Shown here: piece by piece, positions 1 to 6,587 of the stretch
Position numbering within the stretch: the first letter of the stretch is position 1
Layout: each line of letters starts with the position of its first letter
Source: Klebsiella phage ST147-VIM1phi7.1
Length of the DNA stretch: 34,141 nt
Sequence record: MK416018.1
Strand: one strand, 5' to 3'
Made by a program: the position numbers and the translations under genes
Notes under the pieces: model-generated
Told to the model about the DNA's origin: nothing
The model's input: the letters and a program-made list of their open reading frames with translations, nothing else
The model's database searches: none

Positions 1-36
1 GGTATCCCTACCGCGACATCTCGTGGTGGAGGTTGT

Positions 37-477
37 GTGGATAGAGAGTTGAGAGAGCTCGTCATGATTGAGCGTGTCGAAATGATTGCGCGTCTGACGG
101 CTGAAGGTACTTGTCAGGAGCGAGACCGAGAAATTGCCTTAAATTTGATTGCGGAAATAGCAAAAGGCAACCTAATGAAAAACAATAATTTTTCCGTTGT
201 TTTTTCCGCTCTGCCTGTCGATGAGACTTTTGCAAAGGAGGGCAAGGTGAAGGTAAATATCACGTTAGATAAAGACCAAAAAATAGGCCAGCCGGTAATT
301 GATGCTTTTCAATGCGAATTGACCAAGCGAATACAGTCTGTTTTCCCGTCAACGCGCGTAACGGTTAAAAAGGGATCTATGACCGGTGTCGAGCTGATGG
401 GGTTCGATAAAGATTCTGACCGAGAGGCGCTTGATAGTATCCTTCAGGAAGTGTGGGAGGATGAGAGCTGGCGTTAA
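37..477 (+). CDS. Tum-like SOS antirepressor with DinI-like C-terminal domain (frame open to window start; start may be GTG 37, ATG 64, or upstream)
   Basis: The C-terminal ~80 aa (ELTKRIQSVFPS...VTVKKG...ALDSILQEVWEDESW) matches the DinI signature (E. coli DinI: ELSRRIQYAFPD...VSVRY...ISEILQETWESADDW). Total length of 146 aa and a position just upstream of cos match phage 186 Tum. Confidence 0.55.
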   Translation: MDRELRELVMIERVEMIARLTAEGTCQERDREIALNLIAEIAKGNLMKNNNFSVVFSALPVDETFAKEGKVKVNITLDKDQKIGQPVIDAFQCELTKRIQSVFPSTRVTVKKGSMTGVELMGFDKDSDREALDSILQEVWEDESWR

Positions 478-479
478 TG

Positions 480-690
480 TATTGTGCTCATGGTGCTTCT
501 CATCGAAAAAGTGTAATTAAATTTTTCATTATGTAATTGTATATTAAATATTCTATTATGAGAAAATGTTATAAGTCATCACTCCTAAGCGAAGCGGATA
601 TCTTGTTATGATGCGTTCATTGGTTAGTTAGTGAGATAAGTCGCCACCAATTGGGTATTTATTACCCGTGGAAAGCAGATGCTTTCTAAC
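480..690 (+). promoter_or_regulatory. AT-rich intergenic region, putative promoter region for the downstream retron-like operon
   Basis: About 30% GC, lying between the Tum stop and a structured GC-richer region. Called from sequence composition only. Confidence 0.3.
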
Positions 691-699
691 ATTTACCCC

Positions 700-900
700 G
701 CGCAACGCCTCTGAGCACCGAAGCGACGCAGCTCGCAAGAGTCATCGCAGGTCCAGATGGTATGGCGTATGGGTATTCGAACCCTTTGGGCGACCAAGGG
801 TTCGTGGAGCAGGGGGCTAGTGCTGTTCAATCTCATCCTTATGAGGGCGAACCATGGTGCTTGAGCAAACATCCGTTTGCACACCGTGGGCATAAGGAAA
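700..900 (+). ncRNA. Candidate retron ncRNA (msr/msd) or structured leader; boundaries uncertain
   Basis: Two strong hairpins lie here. One is at 777-803 (9 bp + 2 bp stem, GCGA tetraloop). The other is at 837-897 (7-bp closing stem ccttatg/cataagg plus an inner ~8-bp stem). Both sit upstream of an operon encoding a retron-type RT. The six-frame ORFs here (693-893 minus, 762-904 plus) have non-protein-like composition. Confidence 0.3.
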
Positions 901-904
901 AAGT

Positions 905-1061
905 CATGAAGAATGATAAAGTAACCAACGAACAGCAGGCGCAGAGCAAGTCAAACCGGAAAAAGTGGGCTGCTTATGCGTGGGAAGCGATCAAGTGGGG
1001 TATTCGACTGTTTGATTTAATCACACGATTAGTAAACTATTTTGAAGGGGGAGATGAGTAA
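905..1061 (+). CDS. Small Trp-rich amphipathic protein (51 aa), unknown function
   Basis: Strong SD (AAGGA at 894-898, 6 nt before the ATG at 905). Product MKNDKVTNEQQAQSKSNRKKWAAYAWEAIKWGIRLFDLITRLVNYFEGGDE. Lies in-operon upstream of the HTH-RT pair. Confidence 0.4.
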
Positions 1062-1085
1062 TGCGTCCTCCCTAGTTTCAATAGC

Positions 1086-1406
1086 ATGGAGTTGCCTATG
1101 TTACATAAAGCCCTTCGTTTAATAAGGCAATACCATAAAGAATCAATAGTTGAATTATCAACATCTTTGGGTATTCCAAAAGAAAAAATAGTAGAACTTG
1201 AAAGCGGAGTTTGGTCGCCGTCGATTGAAGTTTTACAGCGTTATGCATCTCATTTTGACATACCAGTATCTTCCTTAGTGTTTTTTTCAGAATCATTAGG
1301 TACTCAAGGGCGTTTGTCTAAGAGTTTACGCTTAAATTTAGCAGGTAAAGTTCTGGATATCGTAGAGTGGGTAAGTAATAAAAATGAAAAAACGGAAAAA
1401 GCTTAA
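1086..1406 (+). CDS. XRE-family helix-turn-helix protein (retron accessory candidate)
   Basis: Classical HTH_XRE segment (IVELSTSLGIPKEKIVELESGVWSPSIEVLQRYASHFDI). The 3' end overlaps the RT start by 23 nt, suggesting translational coupling. Alternative start at ATG 1101. Confidence 0.7.
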   Translation: MELPMLHKALRLIRQYHKESIVELSTSLGIPKEKIVELESGVWSPSIEVLQRYASHFDIPVSSLVFFSESLGTQGRLSKSLRLNLAGKVLDIVEWVSNKNEKTEKA

Positions 1407-2334
1407 GATCTCCACTAAAAATAAATCTTATGACGTAAAGGATTCGCCATTTTATAAGCTCAAAACCAAAAAAAAACTTGCCGGACTTCTTTGCGTTAGT
1501 GTGAATGATTTATCTATTTTGAGAAAAGACGAAGGTAATTACTCTGTTTTTGAACAGCTGTCTAAAAAAGGCAAGCCACGAAAAATACAAAAGCCTTTAG
1601 AGAAATTAGATGTAGTGCATACGCGAATTGCGAGTTTATTATCGCGCATTGCGTTACCAGAATATCTGCATTCAGGTAGAAAAAAGTGTTCTAATGTAAC
1701 GAATGCTAAAGCTCATCTTAACCATGAAAAGATGATGACAACTGATATTAAGGCCTTTTTCCCTTCAACAACAAGGGTAATGATATTTTCATTTTTCTTT
1801 TCAGTGATGAAAACGTCATCTGACGTTGCTGATATTTTGTCGCACATATGCACCTGTCATGACCGGTTGCCAACAGGAAGTCGGATTAGTATGCCTTTGG
1901 CCTACTTTGCAAACTCTAGAATGTTTAGTGAAATGTATGAGCTTTGCCAAAAATTAACAGTTAACATGACTGTTTATGTTGATGATCTGACTTTTTCTGG
2001 CGCTAACGTAAATCGATTATTCTGTGCTGTGATTCGTAAGGTTATCTGCAAGCATGGGCATACTATGCATCCTGATAAAACAAGATTATATGCTAAAGAC
2101 CAACCCAAGTTGGTAACTGGAGTTATTGTATTAGGTGACTGTTTGAAAGTTAGAAATGAGCAACATCGCCTAATGGCTAGAGATATTGAGTATTGGAAAA
2201 TAATTAAAGATGTGGAAAGTGCTAAAGAAACATCGATTGCAAAAACACTCTTTGGTCGTTTGCATTCAATGGGAGTTATTGAACAACGGTATAAATCGAA
2301 AGTCCTCACTTTAAAGTTTAATACCGCAAATTAA
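1384..2334 (+). CDS. Retron-type reverse transcriptase (316 aa)
   Basis: RT motifs are present. These are N-terminal LAGLLCVSVNDLSIL, KKGKPRKIQKP (cf. retron KKsGGxRxIxxP), NAKAHLNHEKMMTTDIKAFFPS (motif 1-2), LPTGSRISMPLAYFANS (motif 4-like) and YVDDLTFSG (YxDD). It also has HPDKTRL and the retron-specific VTG box (KLVTGVIVLG). Its size matches Ec86-class RTs. Confidence 0.85.
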   Translation: MKKRKKLKISTKNKSYDVKDSPFYKLKTKKKLAGLLCVSVNDLSILRKDEGNYSVFEQLSKKGKPRKIQKPLEKLDVVHTRIASLLSRIALPEYLHSGRKKCSNVTNAKAHLNHEKMMTTDIKAFFPSTTRVMIFSFFFSVMKTSSDVADILSHICTCHDRLPTGSRISMPLAYFANSRMFSEMYELCQKLTVNMTVYVDDLTFSGANVNRLFCAVIRKVICKHGHTMHPDKTRLYAKDQPKLVTGVIVLGDCLKVRNEQHRLMARDIEYWKIIKDVESAKETSIAKTLFGRLHSMGVIEQRYKSKVLTLKFNTAN

Positions 2335-2410
2335 AATATTGAATGCAGTGGGTGTACGTCAATTAAAAAATTGATGAGTTAGGTTCGGTATGGATAACTC
2401 ATTATGATAA

Positions 2411-2448
2411 CCCGGCCAGCACTGAAAACGGTTTCAGTGCTGGCCGGG
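2411..2448. terminator. Perfect 17-bp stem / 4-nt loop hairpin between convergent genes (possible bidirectional terminator)
   Basis: Sequence cccggccagcactgaaa-acgg-tttcagtgctggccggg. Lies between the RT stop (2334) and the minus-strand gene stop (2473). No clean U-tract on either side. Confidence 0.4.
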
Positions 2449-2472
2449 TTGAACAACGAGTCCTGCGAGGCG

Positions 2473-2904
2473 TTAGCTTGTTACCAGATTAACACCGAGT
2501 GTCAGCAAATTCGTCACCGCACCTGCAATGACTCCTGGGGTTCCATCCTTCACCGCACTGATAATCTTATCGCCCATCGTTTCATTACCGCCAAGCGCCT
2601 CAGGCTTTTTGTTGAGCACGGCGAGAGCTTTCTCGGTCAGACGCACATCCATAAAATACGTTTGATGGTCGGTTTCATACTGGATGTATCCATTTTCACC
2701 AAGAAAAGTGAATGTACCTTCAACCACACTACGCAATTGATTTATTGCTTTCATTTCCGGTGAGTTAAGTTGGTTAAAGTAGTCATCGGGTAGTGCTGCG
2801 TTAAATTTTTCGTAGGTGATGACTTGCGGAACGGGAAAGTTATCCCATAGCACCGCAAAGATTTCCGCCGTCTGTTGGTTAAATAAATCGAGGTTTTTAG
2901 ACAT
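2473..2904 (-). CDS. Hypothetical protein (143 aa) with Gly-rich hydrophobic C-terminus
   Basis: Protein-like composition on the minus strand. Start MSKNLDLFNQQ... at 2904, though the ORF is open up to 2979. C-terminus ...GTPGVIAGAVTNLLTLGVNLVTS. No homolog recognised. Confidence 0.55.
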   Translation of the reverse strand: MSKNLDLFNQQTAEIFAVLWDNFPVPQVITYEKFNAALPDDYFNQLNSPEMKAINQLRSVVEGTFTFLGENGYIQYETDHQTYFMDVRLTEKALAVLNKKPEALGGNETMGDKIISAVKDGTPGVIAGAVTNLLTLGVNLVTS

Positions 2905-3097
2905 GCAAAATTCCATTTCTAGTGAGGATAAGTGGGTTAAGCGCTGGTCGAAGCACATTACCTGTCTGGCGCAGAACAATGACCTTAGTTCACGAGAGGT
3001 CGACAGCTATACCGCTAAGCTGGTCGAACAGGCAAGCAGCGAAGAGCTAGGCAAGGTCATTAAAGACCTACTGAATCACATCAGAATGCAAAAATAA
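2903..3097 (+). CDS. Small hypothetical protein (64 aa)
   Basis: ATG at 2903 is back-to-back with the minus-strand start (acATG). Hydrophilic product MQNSISSEDKWVKRW... Followed by the 3114 ORF and a plus-strand terminator. Weak SD. Confidence 0.3.
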   Translation: MQNSISSEDKWVKRWSKHITCLAQNNDLSSREVDSYTAKLVEQASSEELGKVIKDLLNHIRMQK

Positions 3098-3113
3098 AAG
3101 GATCTTTATCAAT

Positions 3114-3215
3114 ATGTTACCTCTCATTTATGAAAATCCGTGGACAACTGTTTTTCTGCTGATTGTTACCAGCGTGTGTCTCAACAGTATCATTGGCACA
3201 TTACGCGGCCAGTAA
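3114..3215 (+). CDS. 33-aa hydrophobic peptide (single predicted TM helix)
   Basis: MLPLIYENPWTTVFLLIVTSVCLNSIIGTLRGQ. AAGGA lies 11 nt upstream. A canonical intrinsic terminator follows immediately. Confidence 0.4.
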   Translation: MLPLIYENPWTTVFLLIVTSVCLNSIIGTLRGQ

Positions 3216-3237
3216 CTTCACAGAAGCGCCCCTAACC

Positions 3238-3264
3238 GGCAACCTGAATGCCGGTTTTTTTATG
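3238..3264 (+). terminator. Rho-independent terminator
   Basis: ccggca-acctgaa-tgccgg followed by ttttttt. Confidence 0.6.
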
Positions 3265-3421
3265 CCATTTCCCCGCGATTTTTCCGTTTCTTAGTCGTGC
3301 ATGCATTAAGTGCATCATTCTGCATGCGTGTTTACTCCATTTTTGTGACGATCGCCGCCAGAGCTGGCGCGGATCCGATGACCTGTTGCAGTTGCATTAA
3401 TTCCTACCCACGAAGCGGGCA

Positions 3422-3440
3422 GGCGAGGCGGGGAAAGCAC
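3422..3440. other. cos: P2-type cos site (19-nt cohesive end)
   Basis: Exact match, as recalled, to the P2 cohesive end GGCGAGGCGGGGAAAGCAC. It lies just downstream of the portal gene, as in P2/186. Confidence 0.6.
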
Positions 3441-3578
3441 TGCGCGCCAGCGTACTTTTGCGCATTTATTTTCGCAACCTGAGCGCGTCGCTGCGCCGCG
3501 CGGATTCGCGAGGGTGTCGGTGGGAGATGCGGAGGCGTTCGAGGGCGTGGCGGGCTTTTGAGGCGGTCAGGCGTGGGG

Positions 3579-3604
3579 GTAAGAAAAAGCCGCCCGGAGG
3601 CGGC
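3579..3604 (-). terminator. Rho-independent terminator of the Q-P late operon
   Basis: Minus-strand hairpin gccgcc-tccg-ggcggc followed by tttttctt, 6 nt after the Q stop. Confidence 0.5.
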
Positions 3605-3609
3605 GGAAA

Positions 3610-4653
3610 TCAGTCACTTTCGGTGTCGAGGGTGTAACTTTTGAACCGGATCACCTCCTGACCGACCCACTCGTTGACCTCTCGCATTCTGTCCTGTAAC
3701 GGGATGAGCTCGTTACGAACAAACACTTTTGCCACCTTTTCGATGTCACCGAGCGAGCCGACGTTTTCCGGCTTGCCGCCCATCAGTTGGAACGGGATGC
3801 GGTGAGCGTCGAGCAGGTCGGCGGCGCTGACTTTTTTGATATTGAAGAAATCGTCTTTCGTTGCCACCTCACTAAGCGGCACAATTTTTATGCCGTCCGG
3901 TTTTCCGTGCGGTGCGTAGAAAAACAGATTTTTGAAGTTGCCGAGCCCCTTCGAACTGCGCATCGCATCGCGCAACGCCTCAACATCGGTACCGCTTTGC
4001 GCGGCGTCCGTCACATACATGATGTAACCTGCATGAGCTCCGTTCTGGTAATACTTGCGACGGAACAGCGTCGCCGCTTCATTCAGCCAGGCGGAGTTTA
4101 GCGCGCTGAGATATTCCGGCATGCCGTACAGCTCTTGGTTGATGTCTGGCTCCAGCAGGTGGAATACGGATCCCGGCGCGAACGGGTGCGGCTGGTCAAA
4201 TGACGGCACCCACCAGTAGACATCATCCTCAATACCACGCCGCGTGTATTTCGCCGGTGACGCTTCCAGCTTCAGCGGGTGACCGGTGACACTCTTTCGG
4301 AGCTCTAAAAACGCGTTGCCAAACACCAGAAAATCAAGCGCGAAGCGGCTGAAGTCCTGTTGTGACAGTAGCGGGTGCGGAATAAACGTTGAGGCCAGAA
4401 TGTTGCGCTTAACGTAAATCGGCGAGCTGTGATGAACGGCGGCACGCAGGCTTTTTGCCAGCCCGTTAAAGCTGACCGGTGGCTCGAACCAGCGACCATT
4501 ATTGACGCATTCCACGTAATCCAGAATATCGCGGCGGTCGAGCACGGCGCTCGGTTCACCAAAGGTAAACGCCTCCACTTTCTGGGGCGCGCTGTCTTTC
4601 ATGTTGCGCGGGCGCTGTTGTGGCTGCGGCTTGCGGCCTTTGTATTTACTCAT
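3610..4653 (-). CDS. Q: Portal protein (P2 gpQ-like)
   Basis: 347 aa against 344 aa for P2 Q. ATGA overlap with the upstream terminase gene. Synteny with P2. Confidence 0.9.
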   Translation of the reverse strand: MSKYKGRKPQPQQRPRNMKDSAPQKVEAFTFGEPSAVLDRRDILDYVECVNNGRWFEPPVSFNGLAKSLRAAVHHSSPIYVKRNILASTFIPHPLLSQQDFSRFALDFLVFGNAFLELRKSVTGHPLKLEASPAKYTRRGIEDDVYWWVPSFDQPHPFAPGSVFHLLEPDINQELYGMPEYLSALNSAWLNEAATLFRRKYYQNGAHAGYIMYVTDAAQSGTDVEALRDAMRSSKGLGNFKNLFFYAPHGKPDGIKIVPLSEVATKDDFFNIKKVSAADLLDAHRIPFQLMGGKPENVGSLGDIEKVAKVFVRNELIPLQDRMREVNEWVGQEVIRFKSYTLDTESD

Positions 4654-6422
4654 CAGTTGAACTCCAGAATGGACGATGTGGCCTGGCCGCTGCCAGCGGT
4701 CAGCGGTTCGTTTAACAGCGCGTGCATGGTCGCCCAGGCGACGTCCGCGTGACTGGCTTCCTCGGTGCGGCTGGCCTCATAGGTGGCGCTGCGCCCGCTG
4801 CTGGTCATGGTCTTGCGGATAGCCATAAACGAGGTGGTGATGTCGGTGGCGCTGACGTCATATTCGAGACAGCCACGGCGGATAACGTCCTTTGCTTTCA
4901 GCACCATTGCGGTTTTCATTTCCGGCGTGTAGCGGATATCGCGGGCGGCGGGATAAAACGAGCGAACCAGCTGGAAGACGCCAATACCGAGGCCGGTCGC
5001 ATCGATACCGATGTACTCGACGTTGTATTTCTCGGTGAGCTGGCGGATGGATTCGGCCTGCGTCGCAAAGTCCATGCCTTTCCACTGATGGCGCTCCAGA
5101 ATGCGAAACTTGCCCCCGGCGACAACCGGCGGCGCGAGCACCACACACCCGGCGCTGTCGCCGCTGTGCGACGGGTCGTATCCGACCCAGACCGGGCGGG
5201 AGCCGAACGGGTTGTCGGCGAACGGCGCAAAGTCTTCCCACTCTTCCAGACTGTCGACCATGCAGCGTTGCAAATCCTCGAACGGGAACACCGACGCTTT
5301 GTCGTCAACGAACTCGCACATAAACAGATTGCGGAAGTCGTCGACGCTGTTTTCGCGCTTGAGTTGCTCCAGATTGAACAGCGTACAGCCCCCGGCGAGC
5401 GCATCCTCAATGGTGACAATCTGCCGCCACTGACCGTCAGGACACGCCACGCCAGCGGCGAGCGCGTCATGACTGATATCGATGTCAACCCGCTCGCTGG
5501 CGCTGGCGCGGCCCCGGTTGAATAATTCCCCCGACCAGAACGGGTAAGCGCCGTGTGCCAGGGTGGAAGGTGTCGAAAAGTAGGTGCTGCGCAGGTGGCT
5601 TTGTGAGGCCATGCCCGACGACACTTTGCGTAGTTTCTGGAAGTTGGGGATCCAGAAAATTTCGTCGACATAAAGGTCGCCGTTGTGGCTCTGCGCGGTG
5701 TTTGAGTTGGTGCCGAGAAAAATCAGCTTAGCGCCGTTGTTGCCTATGACAATCGGGTCACCGGTCAGGTCGACATCGACCCGGCGGGCAAACTGAATGA
5801 TGTACTCGCGGAATACATACGCCTGCGTCTTACTCGCTGACAGGAAAATCTGGTTATGGCCGGTTTTCAGCGCATGCAGCAGCGCCTCGCGGGAAAAGTA
5901 GAACGTCGCCCCAATCTGGCGCGATTTCAGAATGTCGCGAATACGGTGCTCAAGCCCGGCGCGGTGCCAGCGGAGCTGATACTCGAAAGACTCCGCGAAA
6001 AAAATCTCTTCCAGTTTCTCGATAGCCTCGTCGCTGAAAAAGTTCTTTGTCGGCTTTTTGCGGTCGCCTTTGTTGCGGTTGGCCACATTGGGATTAAGGT
6101 CAACCTCATTTCCGGTCTGGCCATAGCGATTAATGCGCGCAAAGCGCTCCATCTGTCGGGCCAGAAAATCCGCCACCTTGAAATCGTGGGGTGTCAGGTT
6201 GGGCTTTGCGTAGAGCTGAATCAGCCGGGCCTCTAAGGTGCTTTCGACCCGGTTCAGCGGTGCGGTTTCCTCCCACTGGTCGCGCTGTTTCCAGCTCTGC
6301 ACCGTCGGGCGTTTGGTCTGCAACATTTCGGCAATCTGCGGCACGGAAAACCCCTGCCAGTACAGTAAAGCCGCCTGGCGTCGCGGGTCGTTTAATAAAG
6401 TGGTGTCGGTGGTGATGGTCAT
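4653..6422 (-). CDS. P: Terminase large subunit / ATPase (P2 gpP-like)
   Basis: 589 aa from MTITTDTTLLNDPRRQ (GAGG SD 5 nt upstream). P2 P is 590 aa. Divergent from O. Confidence 0.9.
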   Translation of the reverse strand: MTITTDTTLLNDPRRQAALLYWQGFSVPQIAEMLQTKRPTVQSWKQRDQWEETAPLNRVESTLEARLIQLYAKPNLTPHDFKVADFLARQMERFARINRYGQTGNEVDLNPNVANRNKGDRKKPTKNFFSDEAIEKLEEIFFAESFEYQLRWHRAGLEHRIRDILKSRQIGATFYFSREALLHALKTGHNQIFLSASKTQAYVFREYIIQFARRVDVDLTGDPIVIGNNGAKLIFLGTNSNTAQSHNGDLYVDEIFWIPNFQKLRKVSSGMASQSHLRSTYFSTPSTLAHGAYPFWSGELFNRGRASASERVDIDISHDALAAGVACPDGQWRQIVTIEDALAGGCTLFNLEQLKRENSVDDFRNLFMCEFVDDKASVFPFEDLQRCMVDSLEEWEDFAPFADNPFGSRPVWVGYDPSHSGDSAGCVVLAPPVVAGGKFRILERHQWKGMDFATQAESIRQLTEKYNVEYIGIDATGLGIGVFQLVRSFYPAARDIRYTPEMKTAMVLKAKDVIRRGCLEYDVSATDITTSFMAIRKTMTSSGRSATYEASRTEEASHADVAWATMHALLNEPLTAGSGQATSSILEFN

Positions 6423-6587
6423 GGATGCCTCGCCGTGATTGATACAGGGCAAGGCTAAAGAAACGGGTGATGCGAATCGCTAAGGTGCTGTTGTGTGAGG
6501 GATAAGCCATCCGGGATTGATAGCGGGTGGGCGGCGACGTCGGGAAACTAACCCCGACCCGTTAACCCGATATCAGGACTCCTGACA

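Follow-up and report, generated by a model that had tools for sequence, protein, structure and literature searches.

A module almost certainly belonging to the type VI retrons in a P2-like Klebsiella pneumoniae prophage, with a hybrid RNA resembling that of Retron-Vpa2

The window analysed in this work is the whole stretch of 34,141 nucleotides of Klebsiella phage ST147-VIM1phi7.1 (sequence record MK416018.1); all coordinates are positions in this window, and labels of the form Lnnn denote the homologous loci that were fetched for comparison. Its left part holds a module that consists of a structured RNA, a small protein (SP) encoded inside that RNA, a helix-turn-helix protein (HTH) and a reverse transcriptase (RT), and the open reading frames (ORFs) of the three proteins are all intact (Table 1). 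With this composition, the module is almost certainly a type VI retron, the class whose operons comprise a non-coding RNA, SP, HTH and RT, as described for Retron-Vpa2 of Vibrio parahaemolyticus and for Retron-Eco12 (Zhang et al., 10.1101/2025.10.22.683967). Systems of this kind are already known, and the locus is a further example of an architecture covered by two preprints, that of Zhang et al. and a second one on Retron-Sen3 from Salmonella enterica (Garcia-Rodriguez et al., 10.64898/2026.04.27.721009).

Table 1. Features of the retron module and of its surroundings in the window (SD, Shine-Dalgarno sequence; "paired" gives the share of standard base pairs in the 30-locus alignment)
Feature	Position	Strand	Remarks
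DinI/Tum-like gene, 146 aa	37-477		upstream of the module
Candidate extended -10 promoter, TGtTATGAT	604-612	+	read from the sequence; transcript start predicted at ~618-620
Hybrid RNA (hyRNA)	~618-1085	+	non-coding domain and embedded SP coding sequence, one folding unit
Helix H0	620-626 with 922-928 (SP codons 6-8)	+	73% paired; 7/7 pairs changed on both sides
Helix Hx	632-637 with 830-835	+	84% paired; 5/6 pairs changed on both sides
Element E1, UCGCC	641-645	+	between Hx and SL-A; covaries with both repeats
Stem-loop SL-A, msr-like	653-667	+	98% paired; compensatory changes
Stem-loop SL-B, msr-like, GGAAAGC...GCUUUCU	670-687	+	97.5% paired; compensatory changes
Candidate msd (reverse-transcription template)	694-804	+	long stem 694-775 plus hairpin 778-804; from position and homology
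Long stem, variable length	694-775	+	insertions and deletions in relatives
Repeat-1 hairpin, GGGCGA (788-793) in the loop	778-804	+	perfect stem of 8-13 bp in every locus
Helix H1	805-816 with 1068-1080	+	just past the SP stop; 81.5% paired
Helix H2	821-828 with 930-937	+	98% paired; 8/8 pairs changed on both sides
Riboregulator hairpin, outer stem 836-843 with 891-898	836-898	+	74% paired by column
SP, 51 aa, predicted toxic effector	906-1061	+	position conserved in ~35 loci
Third arm of the hyRNA	938-1080	+	closed by H3, followed by the H1 3' arm (1068-1080)
Helix H3	938-943 with 1062-1067	+	95.5% paired; 6/6 pairs changed on both sides
Type VI HTH, 102 aa from ATG 1098	1098-1406	+	PADLOC HTH_VI; ORF open from 1086
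Retron type VI RT, 316 aa	1384-2334	+	PADLOC RT_VI, full length
G+C-rich perfect 17-bp hairpin	2411-2448	.	between RT and the 143-aa gene; read from the sequence
Convergent gene, 143 aa	2473-2904	-	phrog_2266
Divergent gene, 64 aa	2903-3097	+	phrog_2454
Portal gene	3610-4653	-	downstream
gpP-type terminase gene	4653-6452	-	downstream

As for the RT, a profile search placed it with the PADLOC model RT_VI, which it matched over profile positions 1-278 of 279 (E 5.1e-104, 345 bits), and the next-best PADLOC models were those of other retron types, at 150 bits or less; the HTH falls in the companion family HTH_VI (E 4.5e-31), and the two matches bear out the suggestion, made in a preliminary description of this DNA, that type VI of the Mestre scheme might apply. 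Every retron motif quoted in that description, the VTG box included, was found in the RT: LAGLL (residues 32-36), KKGKPRKIQKP (61-71), NAKAHL (107-112), DIKAFFPS (121-128), YVDDL (198-202) and KLVTGVIVLG (242-251, with VTG at 244-246). Homologues of the RT number in the hundreds; in the 31 that were aligned, the retron hallmarks NAxxH, YxDD and VTG are invariant or nearly so, with residues N107, A108, H111, Y198-D201, T245 and G246 unchanged throughout. The RT is 86-92% identical to the RTs found in P2 prophages of Escherichia coli and 56% identical to that of a Vpa2-like locus of Vibrio, against ~30-38% for more distant type VI-like loci. An RT of the Vpa2/Eco12-like lineage would be expected in the 'Large' subclade of the published type VI tree, a point on which these pairwise identities bear.

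Regarding the HTH, its ORF (1086-1406) overlaps that of the RT by 23 nt, so the translational coupling of an XRE-type HTH gene to the RT, also part of the earlier description, is indeed seen. The true start of the protein is probably ATG 1098: GGAG occurs at 1088-1091, six bases before it, and the resulting N-terminus fits both the way RefSeq annotates its E. coli counterparts and the Vpa2-like HTH of Vibrio, to which the window protein is 46% identical, with R7 conserved. By analogy with the two preprints, the HTH is predicted to be a repressor of reverse transcription and/or an antitoxin for SP.

SP corresponds to the 51-aa ORF, rich in Trp (three residues), that the earlier description had pointed out upstream of the HTH gene. 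When one genome per species was scanned for RT homologues, 80 loci were obtained, and ~35 of them have an ORF of 47-57 aa directly upstream of the HTH gene, with a common sequence pattern: the N-terminal half is polar and basic, a hydrophobic helix of amphipathic character follows, and the tail is often acidic (G-G-D/E). SP matches phrog_15287 (E 4.7e-33); folded alone, it is predicted to form a single long helix (predicted local distance difference test score, pLDDT, of 85), strongly amphipathic at residues 24-40; its N-terminus is basic, its tail acidic, and its hydrophobicity too low for a membrane span. Its residues I39, V43 and Y45 align with I39, F43 and F45 of the Vpa2 SP, which are required for toxicity (Zhang et al., 10.1101/2025.10.22.683967). 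The absence of a recognisable effector domain and the presence of a small ORF, listed as two oddities in the preliminary description, thus have a single answer: the small ORF is the SP, the effector of the published type VI retrons, and this explains the effector that seemed to be missing.

A longer ORF of 99 aa (762-1061, + strand) ends at the same stop and prolongs the SP frame upstream across the riboregulator; it was rejected as a real gene and regarded as an artefact because its N-terminal extension is out of frame or absent in the relatives and is not conserved in frame. The long form of SP is annotated in gp41 of Peduovirus P2_2H1 and in PHROG 5826, which is probably a recurrent mis-annotation.

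The structured RNA had been placed from position 690 onward; the strong fold stood up to analysis, but this start cuts off the 5' domain, and the true span, ~618-1085, includes the SP coding sequence. The region 600-1100 folds at -172 kcal/mol versus -148 ± 5 kcal/mol for shuffled sequences (z = -4.8), with more stability than any of the 100 shuffles, in agreement with the highly structured character first ascribed to it. At minimum free energy, 618-1092 is predicted to adopt the three-arm structure (H1, H2 and H3) of Zhang et al.; in this fold, and in every other fold tried, the SP Shine-Dalgarno sequence is paired and the second of the two direct repeats is unpaired. The outer stem of the riboregulator hairpin buries this Shine-Dalgarno sequence (AAGGA, 894-898), and the repeat, GGGCGA at 845-850, lies in the internal loop of the hairpin.

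The evidence on the RNA comes from alignments of close relatives, an RNAalifold consensus of 13 loci, block alignments of 30 loci and pair counts in the 30-locus alignment. Considering all 72 pairs in the 30 loci, standard pairs fill 84.5% of the cells, compared with 43-50% when the partners are slid by 1-3 columns and 69.9% after shuffling of columns, and none of 500 shuffles reached the observed value; as judged from these aligned sequences, covariation supports every helix. Hx illustrates the compensatory changes well, with GAGAU/AUCUC replaced by GGGAU/AUCCC and by GAGAG/CUCUC. Because the MAFFT columns are noisy for the repeat-1 hairpin and the riboregulator stem (55-78% paired), these two elements were tested locus by locus. 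The riboregulator stem is present in all 30 loci, with 5-12 bp and differing sequences, and its arms form duplexes of 8.6 bp on average within a locus versus 5.9 bp across loci; H0, which also aligns poorly by column, behaves similarly, with duplexes of 6-11 bp per locus, unrelated in sequence, and 8.9 bp within versus 6.5 bp across loci. For both helices, none of 2000 permutations reached the observed sum. A search of Rfam over positions 1-4000, sub-threshold matches included, returned chance matches only and no type VI retron RNA family.

The pairing also touches the protein-coding part: SP codons 9-13 (930-943) encode a conserved N-terminal motif (E/D-Q-Q-A in some lineages, W-Q-A/T-L in others) and overlap the 3' arm of H2 and the 5' arm of H3, so that RNA pairing, as much as the function of the protein, seems to constrain them.

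As for the direct repeats, one copy of GGGCGA is located in the loop of the msd hairpin (788-793) and the other in the riboregulator loop. Across the loci the two copies vary in concert, as GGGCGA, GGACGAA, GGTGAC/T, GGGTGA, GTGCGAA, AGCGAAG, GAGCGA and others; the shared substring measures 6.2 nt within loci versus 4.7 nt between them, and none of 5000 permutations matched this, in a test that ignores relatedness and covers only ~4-6 independent variant classes. This arrangement is the one reported by Zhang et al., who described a 7-nt direct repeat, found in an msd loop and again in the loop of the riboregulator (10.1101/2025.10.22.683967); the concerted variation, which is independent of the data in that preprint, supports the published idea that the complementary DNA (cDNA) of repeat 1 pairs with repeat 2.

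The closest known systems can be recognized from these features, and the module comes nearest to the lineage of Retron-Vpa2 and Retron-Eco12. With these two it shares the order hyRNA-SP-HTH-RT, the three-arm RNA, the paired ribosome-binding site of SP and the direct repeat with one copy in the loop of the msd hairpin and another in the riboregulator. The short SP, devoid of an extension, and the two conserved repeats are the characters that mark the Vpa2/Eco12-like lineage, and the window has both. The SP is close in size to that of Vpa2 (51 versus 55 aa), with an aligned hydrophobic core and the same F-E/D-G-G-D tail. The main reference for this comparison is locus L085 of Vibrio parahaemolyticus, which encodes a 55-aa SP with K15, I39, F43 and F45 and an HTH with R7; as these are exactly the residues mutated by Zhang et al., L085 is either Vpa2 or a near relative of it. 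Differences exist as well: the repeat is GGACGAA in the Vpa2-like Vibrio locus and GGGCGA in the window, the candidate msd of the window is longer (~111 nt versus 86-91 nt), and the Vibrio copy lies beside hipA and rpoD, whereas that of the window is on a P2-like prophage of Klebsiella.

The size of the msd was derived from the same locus. In L085, the stretch that begins after SL-B and closes with the repeat-1 hairpin measures 91 nt, compared with 86 nt for the multicopy single-stranded DNA (msDNA) as published; by homology, the template in the window would be ~694-804 and its product ~110 nt long.

Two further observations were made on the fetched loci. In L085 (1-6960), the retron is placed between the hipA toxin gene and rpoD/dnaG, outside any P2 prophage, and one retron lineage is thus found in very different genomic vehicles. 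Xenorhabdus hominickii has two copies in one genome (L037 and L038), in which the best RT match is confined to the C-terminal part (starting at locus position 4375) and the search gave no match for an HTH; these may be disrupted copies.

Compared with the canonical retrons (Ec86/Eco1, Ec48/Eco6 and Se72/Sen1), the module has the same NAxxH, YxDD and VTG motifs in the RT, an upstream structured RNA with msr-like stem-loops and a long msd-like stem, and the association with a toxin and the logic of abortive infection would also be common to both. In contrast, the canonical systems make abundant msDNA that serves as the antitoxin, while msDNA is scarce in type VI and activates the toxin in Vpa2; moreover, the predicted toxin gene of the window is inside the retron RNA, and the simple combination of an a1/a2 pair with a branching G was not found.

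In Vpa2, SP is toxic on its own and has a buried ribosome-binding site, and the HTH represses reverse transcription; phage recombination proteins trigger the accumulation of msDNA, which activates the translation of SP even when supplied in trans (Zhang et al., 10.1101/2025.10.22.683967). On this basis, we consider it likely that a P2-like Klebsiella pneumoniae prophage carries in its old/tin hotspot, as cargo, an intact type VI retron, and a mechanism of the Vpa2 type is proposed for this retron, where the toxicity of SP, the role of the HTH, the triggers and the msDNA-dependent derepression are all transferred from the preprints. A constitutive promoter near 604-612 would drive the hybrid RNA (~618-1085) together with the HTH and RT genes; RT and HTH would bind the RNA, the HTH keeping reverse transcription low. 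Upon infection by a phage with recombination proteins or RecBCD inhibitors, single-stranded msDNA copied from ~694-804 would accumulate, and its 5' hairpin loop, which is the complement of repeat 1, would pair with repeat 2 in the riboregulator and free the ribosome-binding site. SP, an amphipathic helical toxin, would then be made, the growth of the infected cell would stop and the lysogen population would be protected. The specific point that SP is under translational control of the Vpa2 kind, silent until msDNA accumulates, is held with somewhat less assurance than the reading as a whole, and appears only moderately favoured by analogy.

Some points weigh against this reading. L085 has YVDD in its RT and the preprint writes YADD for Vpa2, so L085 may be a close relative of Vpa2 and not Vpa2 itself. 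The promoter at 604-612 is a candidate recognized by eye as an extended -10 and by conservation, as in most related loci the alignments show a -10-like hexamer 7-9 nt before the first conserved helix arm; a scan for sigma-70 promoters and terminators, in which a -35 box was required, gave no excess over shuffled sequences and nothing at 604-612. As for priming, an a1/a2 pair and a branching G were sought in the hyRNA, and neither the priming site nor the branching G was located: none of the three long-range helices (H0, Hx and H1) sets a conserved G beside the predicted 3' end of the msd. H0, the strongest candidate (inverted repeat 615-629/919-933), is a real helix, but as an a1/a2 pair it would put priming inside the SP gene, in disagreement with the mapped msDNA of Vpa2; H1 abuts the predicted msd end, yet its partner arm is not followed by a conserved G. 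Further, H0 and Hx cross H1 and H2, both sets being backed by covariation, and the simple published model offers no explanation for this. Finally, ssDNA is produced constitutively in Retron-Sen3 and control is post-translational, so one lineage may be controlled in another way than the next.

The crossing helices deserve a closer description. The four of them cannot share a simple nested fold, and forcing H0 and Hx into a nested model costs ~12 kcal/mol; the core must then be pseudoknotted or alternate between conformers. Within the same region, E1 is complementary to both direct repeats, its sequence being that of the cDNA of repeat 1. E1 and repeat 2 are paired in 94% of the cells, against 27-50% in the slid controls, and four of the five pairs have changed on both sides, with variants such as UCACC/GGUGA, UCGUC/GACGA (in the Vpa2-like locus), UCGCU/AGCGA and CCGUC/GACGG; where the two repeats differ (L024, L050, L029 and probably L034), E1 fits repeat 2 better. 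These data suggest that E1, repeat 1, repeat 2 and msDNA compete with each other, in a pseudoknotted core or through a conformational switch. It is a tentative proposal, and one we hold to be rather less probable than its contrary, that the hybrid RNA of type VI retrons is a competitive switch of three elements instead of two repeats. According to one reading, E1 would pair with the riboregulator loop in the resting state and msDNA, as a DNA mimic of E1, would displace it; according to another, reverse transcription would release E1 from repeat 1, leaving it to attack repeat 2. Neither E1 nor the crossing helices are mentioned in the text of the two preprints, figures excluded.

Among the rival explanations, the one that survives best is a control of the Sen3 kind, in which ssDNA and SP are constitutive, the HTH is a post-translational antitoxin, inhibition of RecBCD by the phage frees the toxin and msDNA is no switch. 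Retron-Sen3 (cl2075, with an SP of 79 aa) makes ssDNA and SP constitutively, its HTH is the antitoxin and the system fires upon RecBCD inhibition (Garcia-Rodriguez et al., 10.64898/2026.04.27.721009); among the other type VI retrons it alone has been studied in depth, and it is of enterobacterial origin. Several features of the window agree with it: the SP-HTH-RT order, an SP coding sequence that lies within a conserved RNA framework, the long-range pairing from the non-coding domain to the sequence after the SP stop, and an HTH whose sequence is tightly conserved and whose translation is coupled to that of the RT. The Sen3 SP's ribosome-binding site is likewise predicted to be in a stem, and because of this the paired site of the window cannot separate the two models. 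The SP of Sen3, however, carries an N-terminal extension of ~25 residues, as is typical of the cl2075 lineage, and starts with MKYETL, whereas the window SP has no such extension and, at 51 aa, aligns with the SP of Vpa2 (55 aa); the C-terminus of the HTH, as deduced from the primers in the paper, differs too. The covarying direct repeats, which Zhang et al. tied to msDNA-dependent derepression, are present and conserved in the window, and basal msDNA is undetectable in Retron-Eco12, a type VI retron of E. coli. No Sen3-like locus (79-aa SP, primer sequence) was met among the 80 loci fetched. Taken together, a Sen3-like mode of control is unlikely here, while still being the alternative to keep in mind; the remaining probability falls to mixtures or decay.

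Much less probable is that the module has decayed or been repurposed, with no role in defence, for instance with the HTH serving only as a prophage regulator. This would agree with the fact that type VI retrons show no visible msDNA in standard assays; against it, the three ORFs are intact, all the invariant RT residues are kept, all the RNA helices and both repeats are preserved, 100 of 5426 complete E. coli genomes keep relatives at 85-89% nucleotide identity, and five Klebsiella phage records have the identical sequence. An RT from a non-retron class (DRT/UG, Abi, group II intron or diversity-generating retroelement, DGR) is hardly conceivable: the Pfam RVT_1 match is weak (25.8 bits, under the cut-off) and no specific NCBIfam model was found, which accounts for the generic RefSeq name "reverse transcriptase family protein", but among the PADLOC matches listed (25 of 38) every one is a retron RT model with RT_VI at the top, the PDB matches are confined to the RTs of retrons Ec86 and Ec67, and intron or DGR features were not found around the RT gene.

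The likely reading, that of an intact Vpa2-type retron carried as prophage cargo, can next be set in its genomic context. The module lies between the DinI/Tum-like gene and the cos/portal/terminase region, in accordance with the old/tin hotspot location suggested at the outset, and it occupies the same variable slot between the replication/Tum end and cos that holds the cargo of P2. Rousset et al. (2022, PMC9122126) listed retrons, along with many other defence systems, in the P2 hotspot of E. coli; their survey was confined to that species, whereas the present copy is in a prophage of K. pneumoniae. The region 480-2400 is 100% identical to five unannotated K. pneumoniae phage records (Kp4882-2 and relatives), and P2-like prophages that share 80-89% identity with it occur in 100 of 5426 complete E. 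coli genomes, many of them O157:H7, Peduovirus P2_2H1 being in the same range; in the annotated E. coli relatives, the module is between the gene of a replication endonuclease or DinI and the portal gene. As expected for acquired cargo, the HTH-RT region has a low G+C content (35-39%) compared with the late genes of the phage (54-62%), and the RNA domain at 601-900 has 51%. Phage Midge has a linear genome whose end maps to ~3421-3427, and this fits what we take to be the P2-type cos, at 3422-3440.

As for the module boundaries, the hairpin downstream of the RT gene is probably a bidirectional terminator that marks the 3' end; it gave a spurious miRNA-like match in Rfam and was unlisted in the terminator scan because its T run is weak. 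An A+T-rich palindrome, AAAAGTGTAATTAAATTTTT, is present at 507-526, ~80 nt upstream of the proposed promoter, and could be an operator or part of the terminator region of the Tum gene.

The 143-aa gene and its 64-aa neighbour have start codons that overlap by 2 nt, and the pair adjoins cos. The preliminary description had counted the convergent 143-aa gene as part of the arrangement; it belongs instead to the P2-like backbone, outside the retron. The slot holds other cargo or none in related phages: in Midge, the DinI gene is directly followed by the 143-aa/64-aa pair, and in Salmonella phage FSL SP-004 a Fic gene is in the slot. Since the pair is kept beside cos in P2-like phages with or without cargo, it is part of the backbone, and the hypothesis that the two genes are retron accessories was rejected. 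In P2_2H1, the retron is followed by a different gene and not by the 143-aa one. In this connection, the record of Midge notes an HHpred resemblance to T7 gp5.5/5.7. The Fic-family gene of FSL SP-004 (L089, 1068-2108) and the 454-aa hypothetical gene beside the retron of P2_2H1 (L083, 6824-8188) are additional cargo and might be related to defence.

In conclusion, the locus adds little by itself, and a tool of the PADLOC type would call the module automatically. Its main value is comparative: the 30-locus alignment gives independent backing to the published model of the hybrid RNA, the joint change of the repeats included, and the locus provides a well-conserved and experimentally tractable enterobacterial example, as well as the alignment anchor that exposed additional candidate switch elements. 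How the DNA copy switches on the translation of the toxin is a question left by the authors of the Vpa2 study (Zhang et al., 10.1101/2025.10.22.683967), and E1 and the competing helices are mutable targets with which it can be addressed. For K. pneumoniae, the finding means that a retron of the Vpa2/Eco12 type rides P2-like prophages into this species, which bears on phage therapy and on the exclusion of superinfecting phages by prophages.

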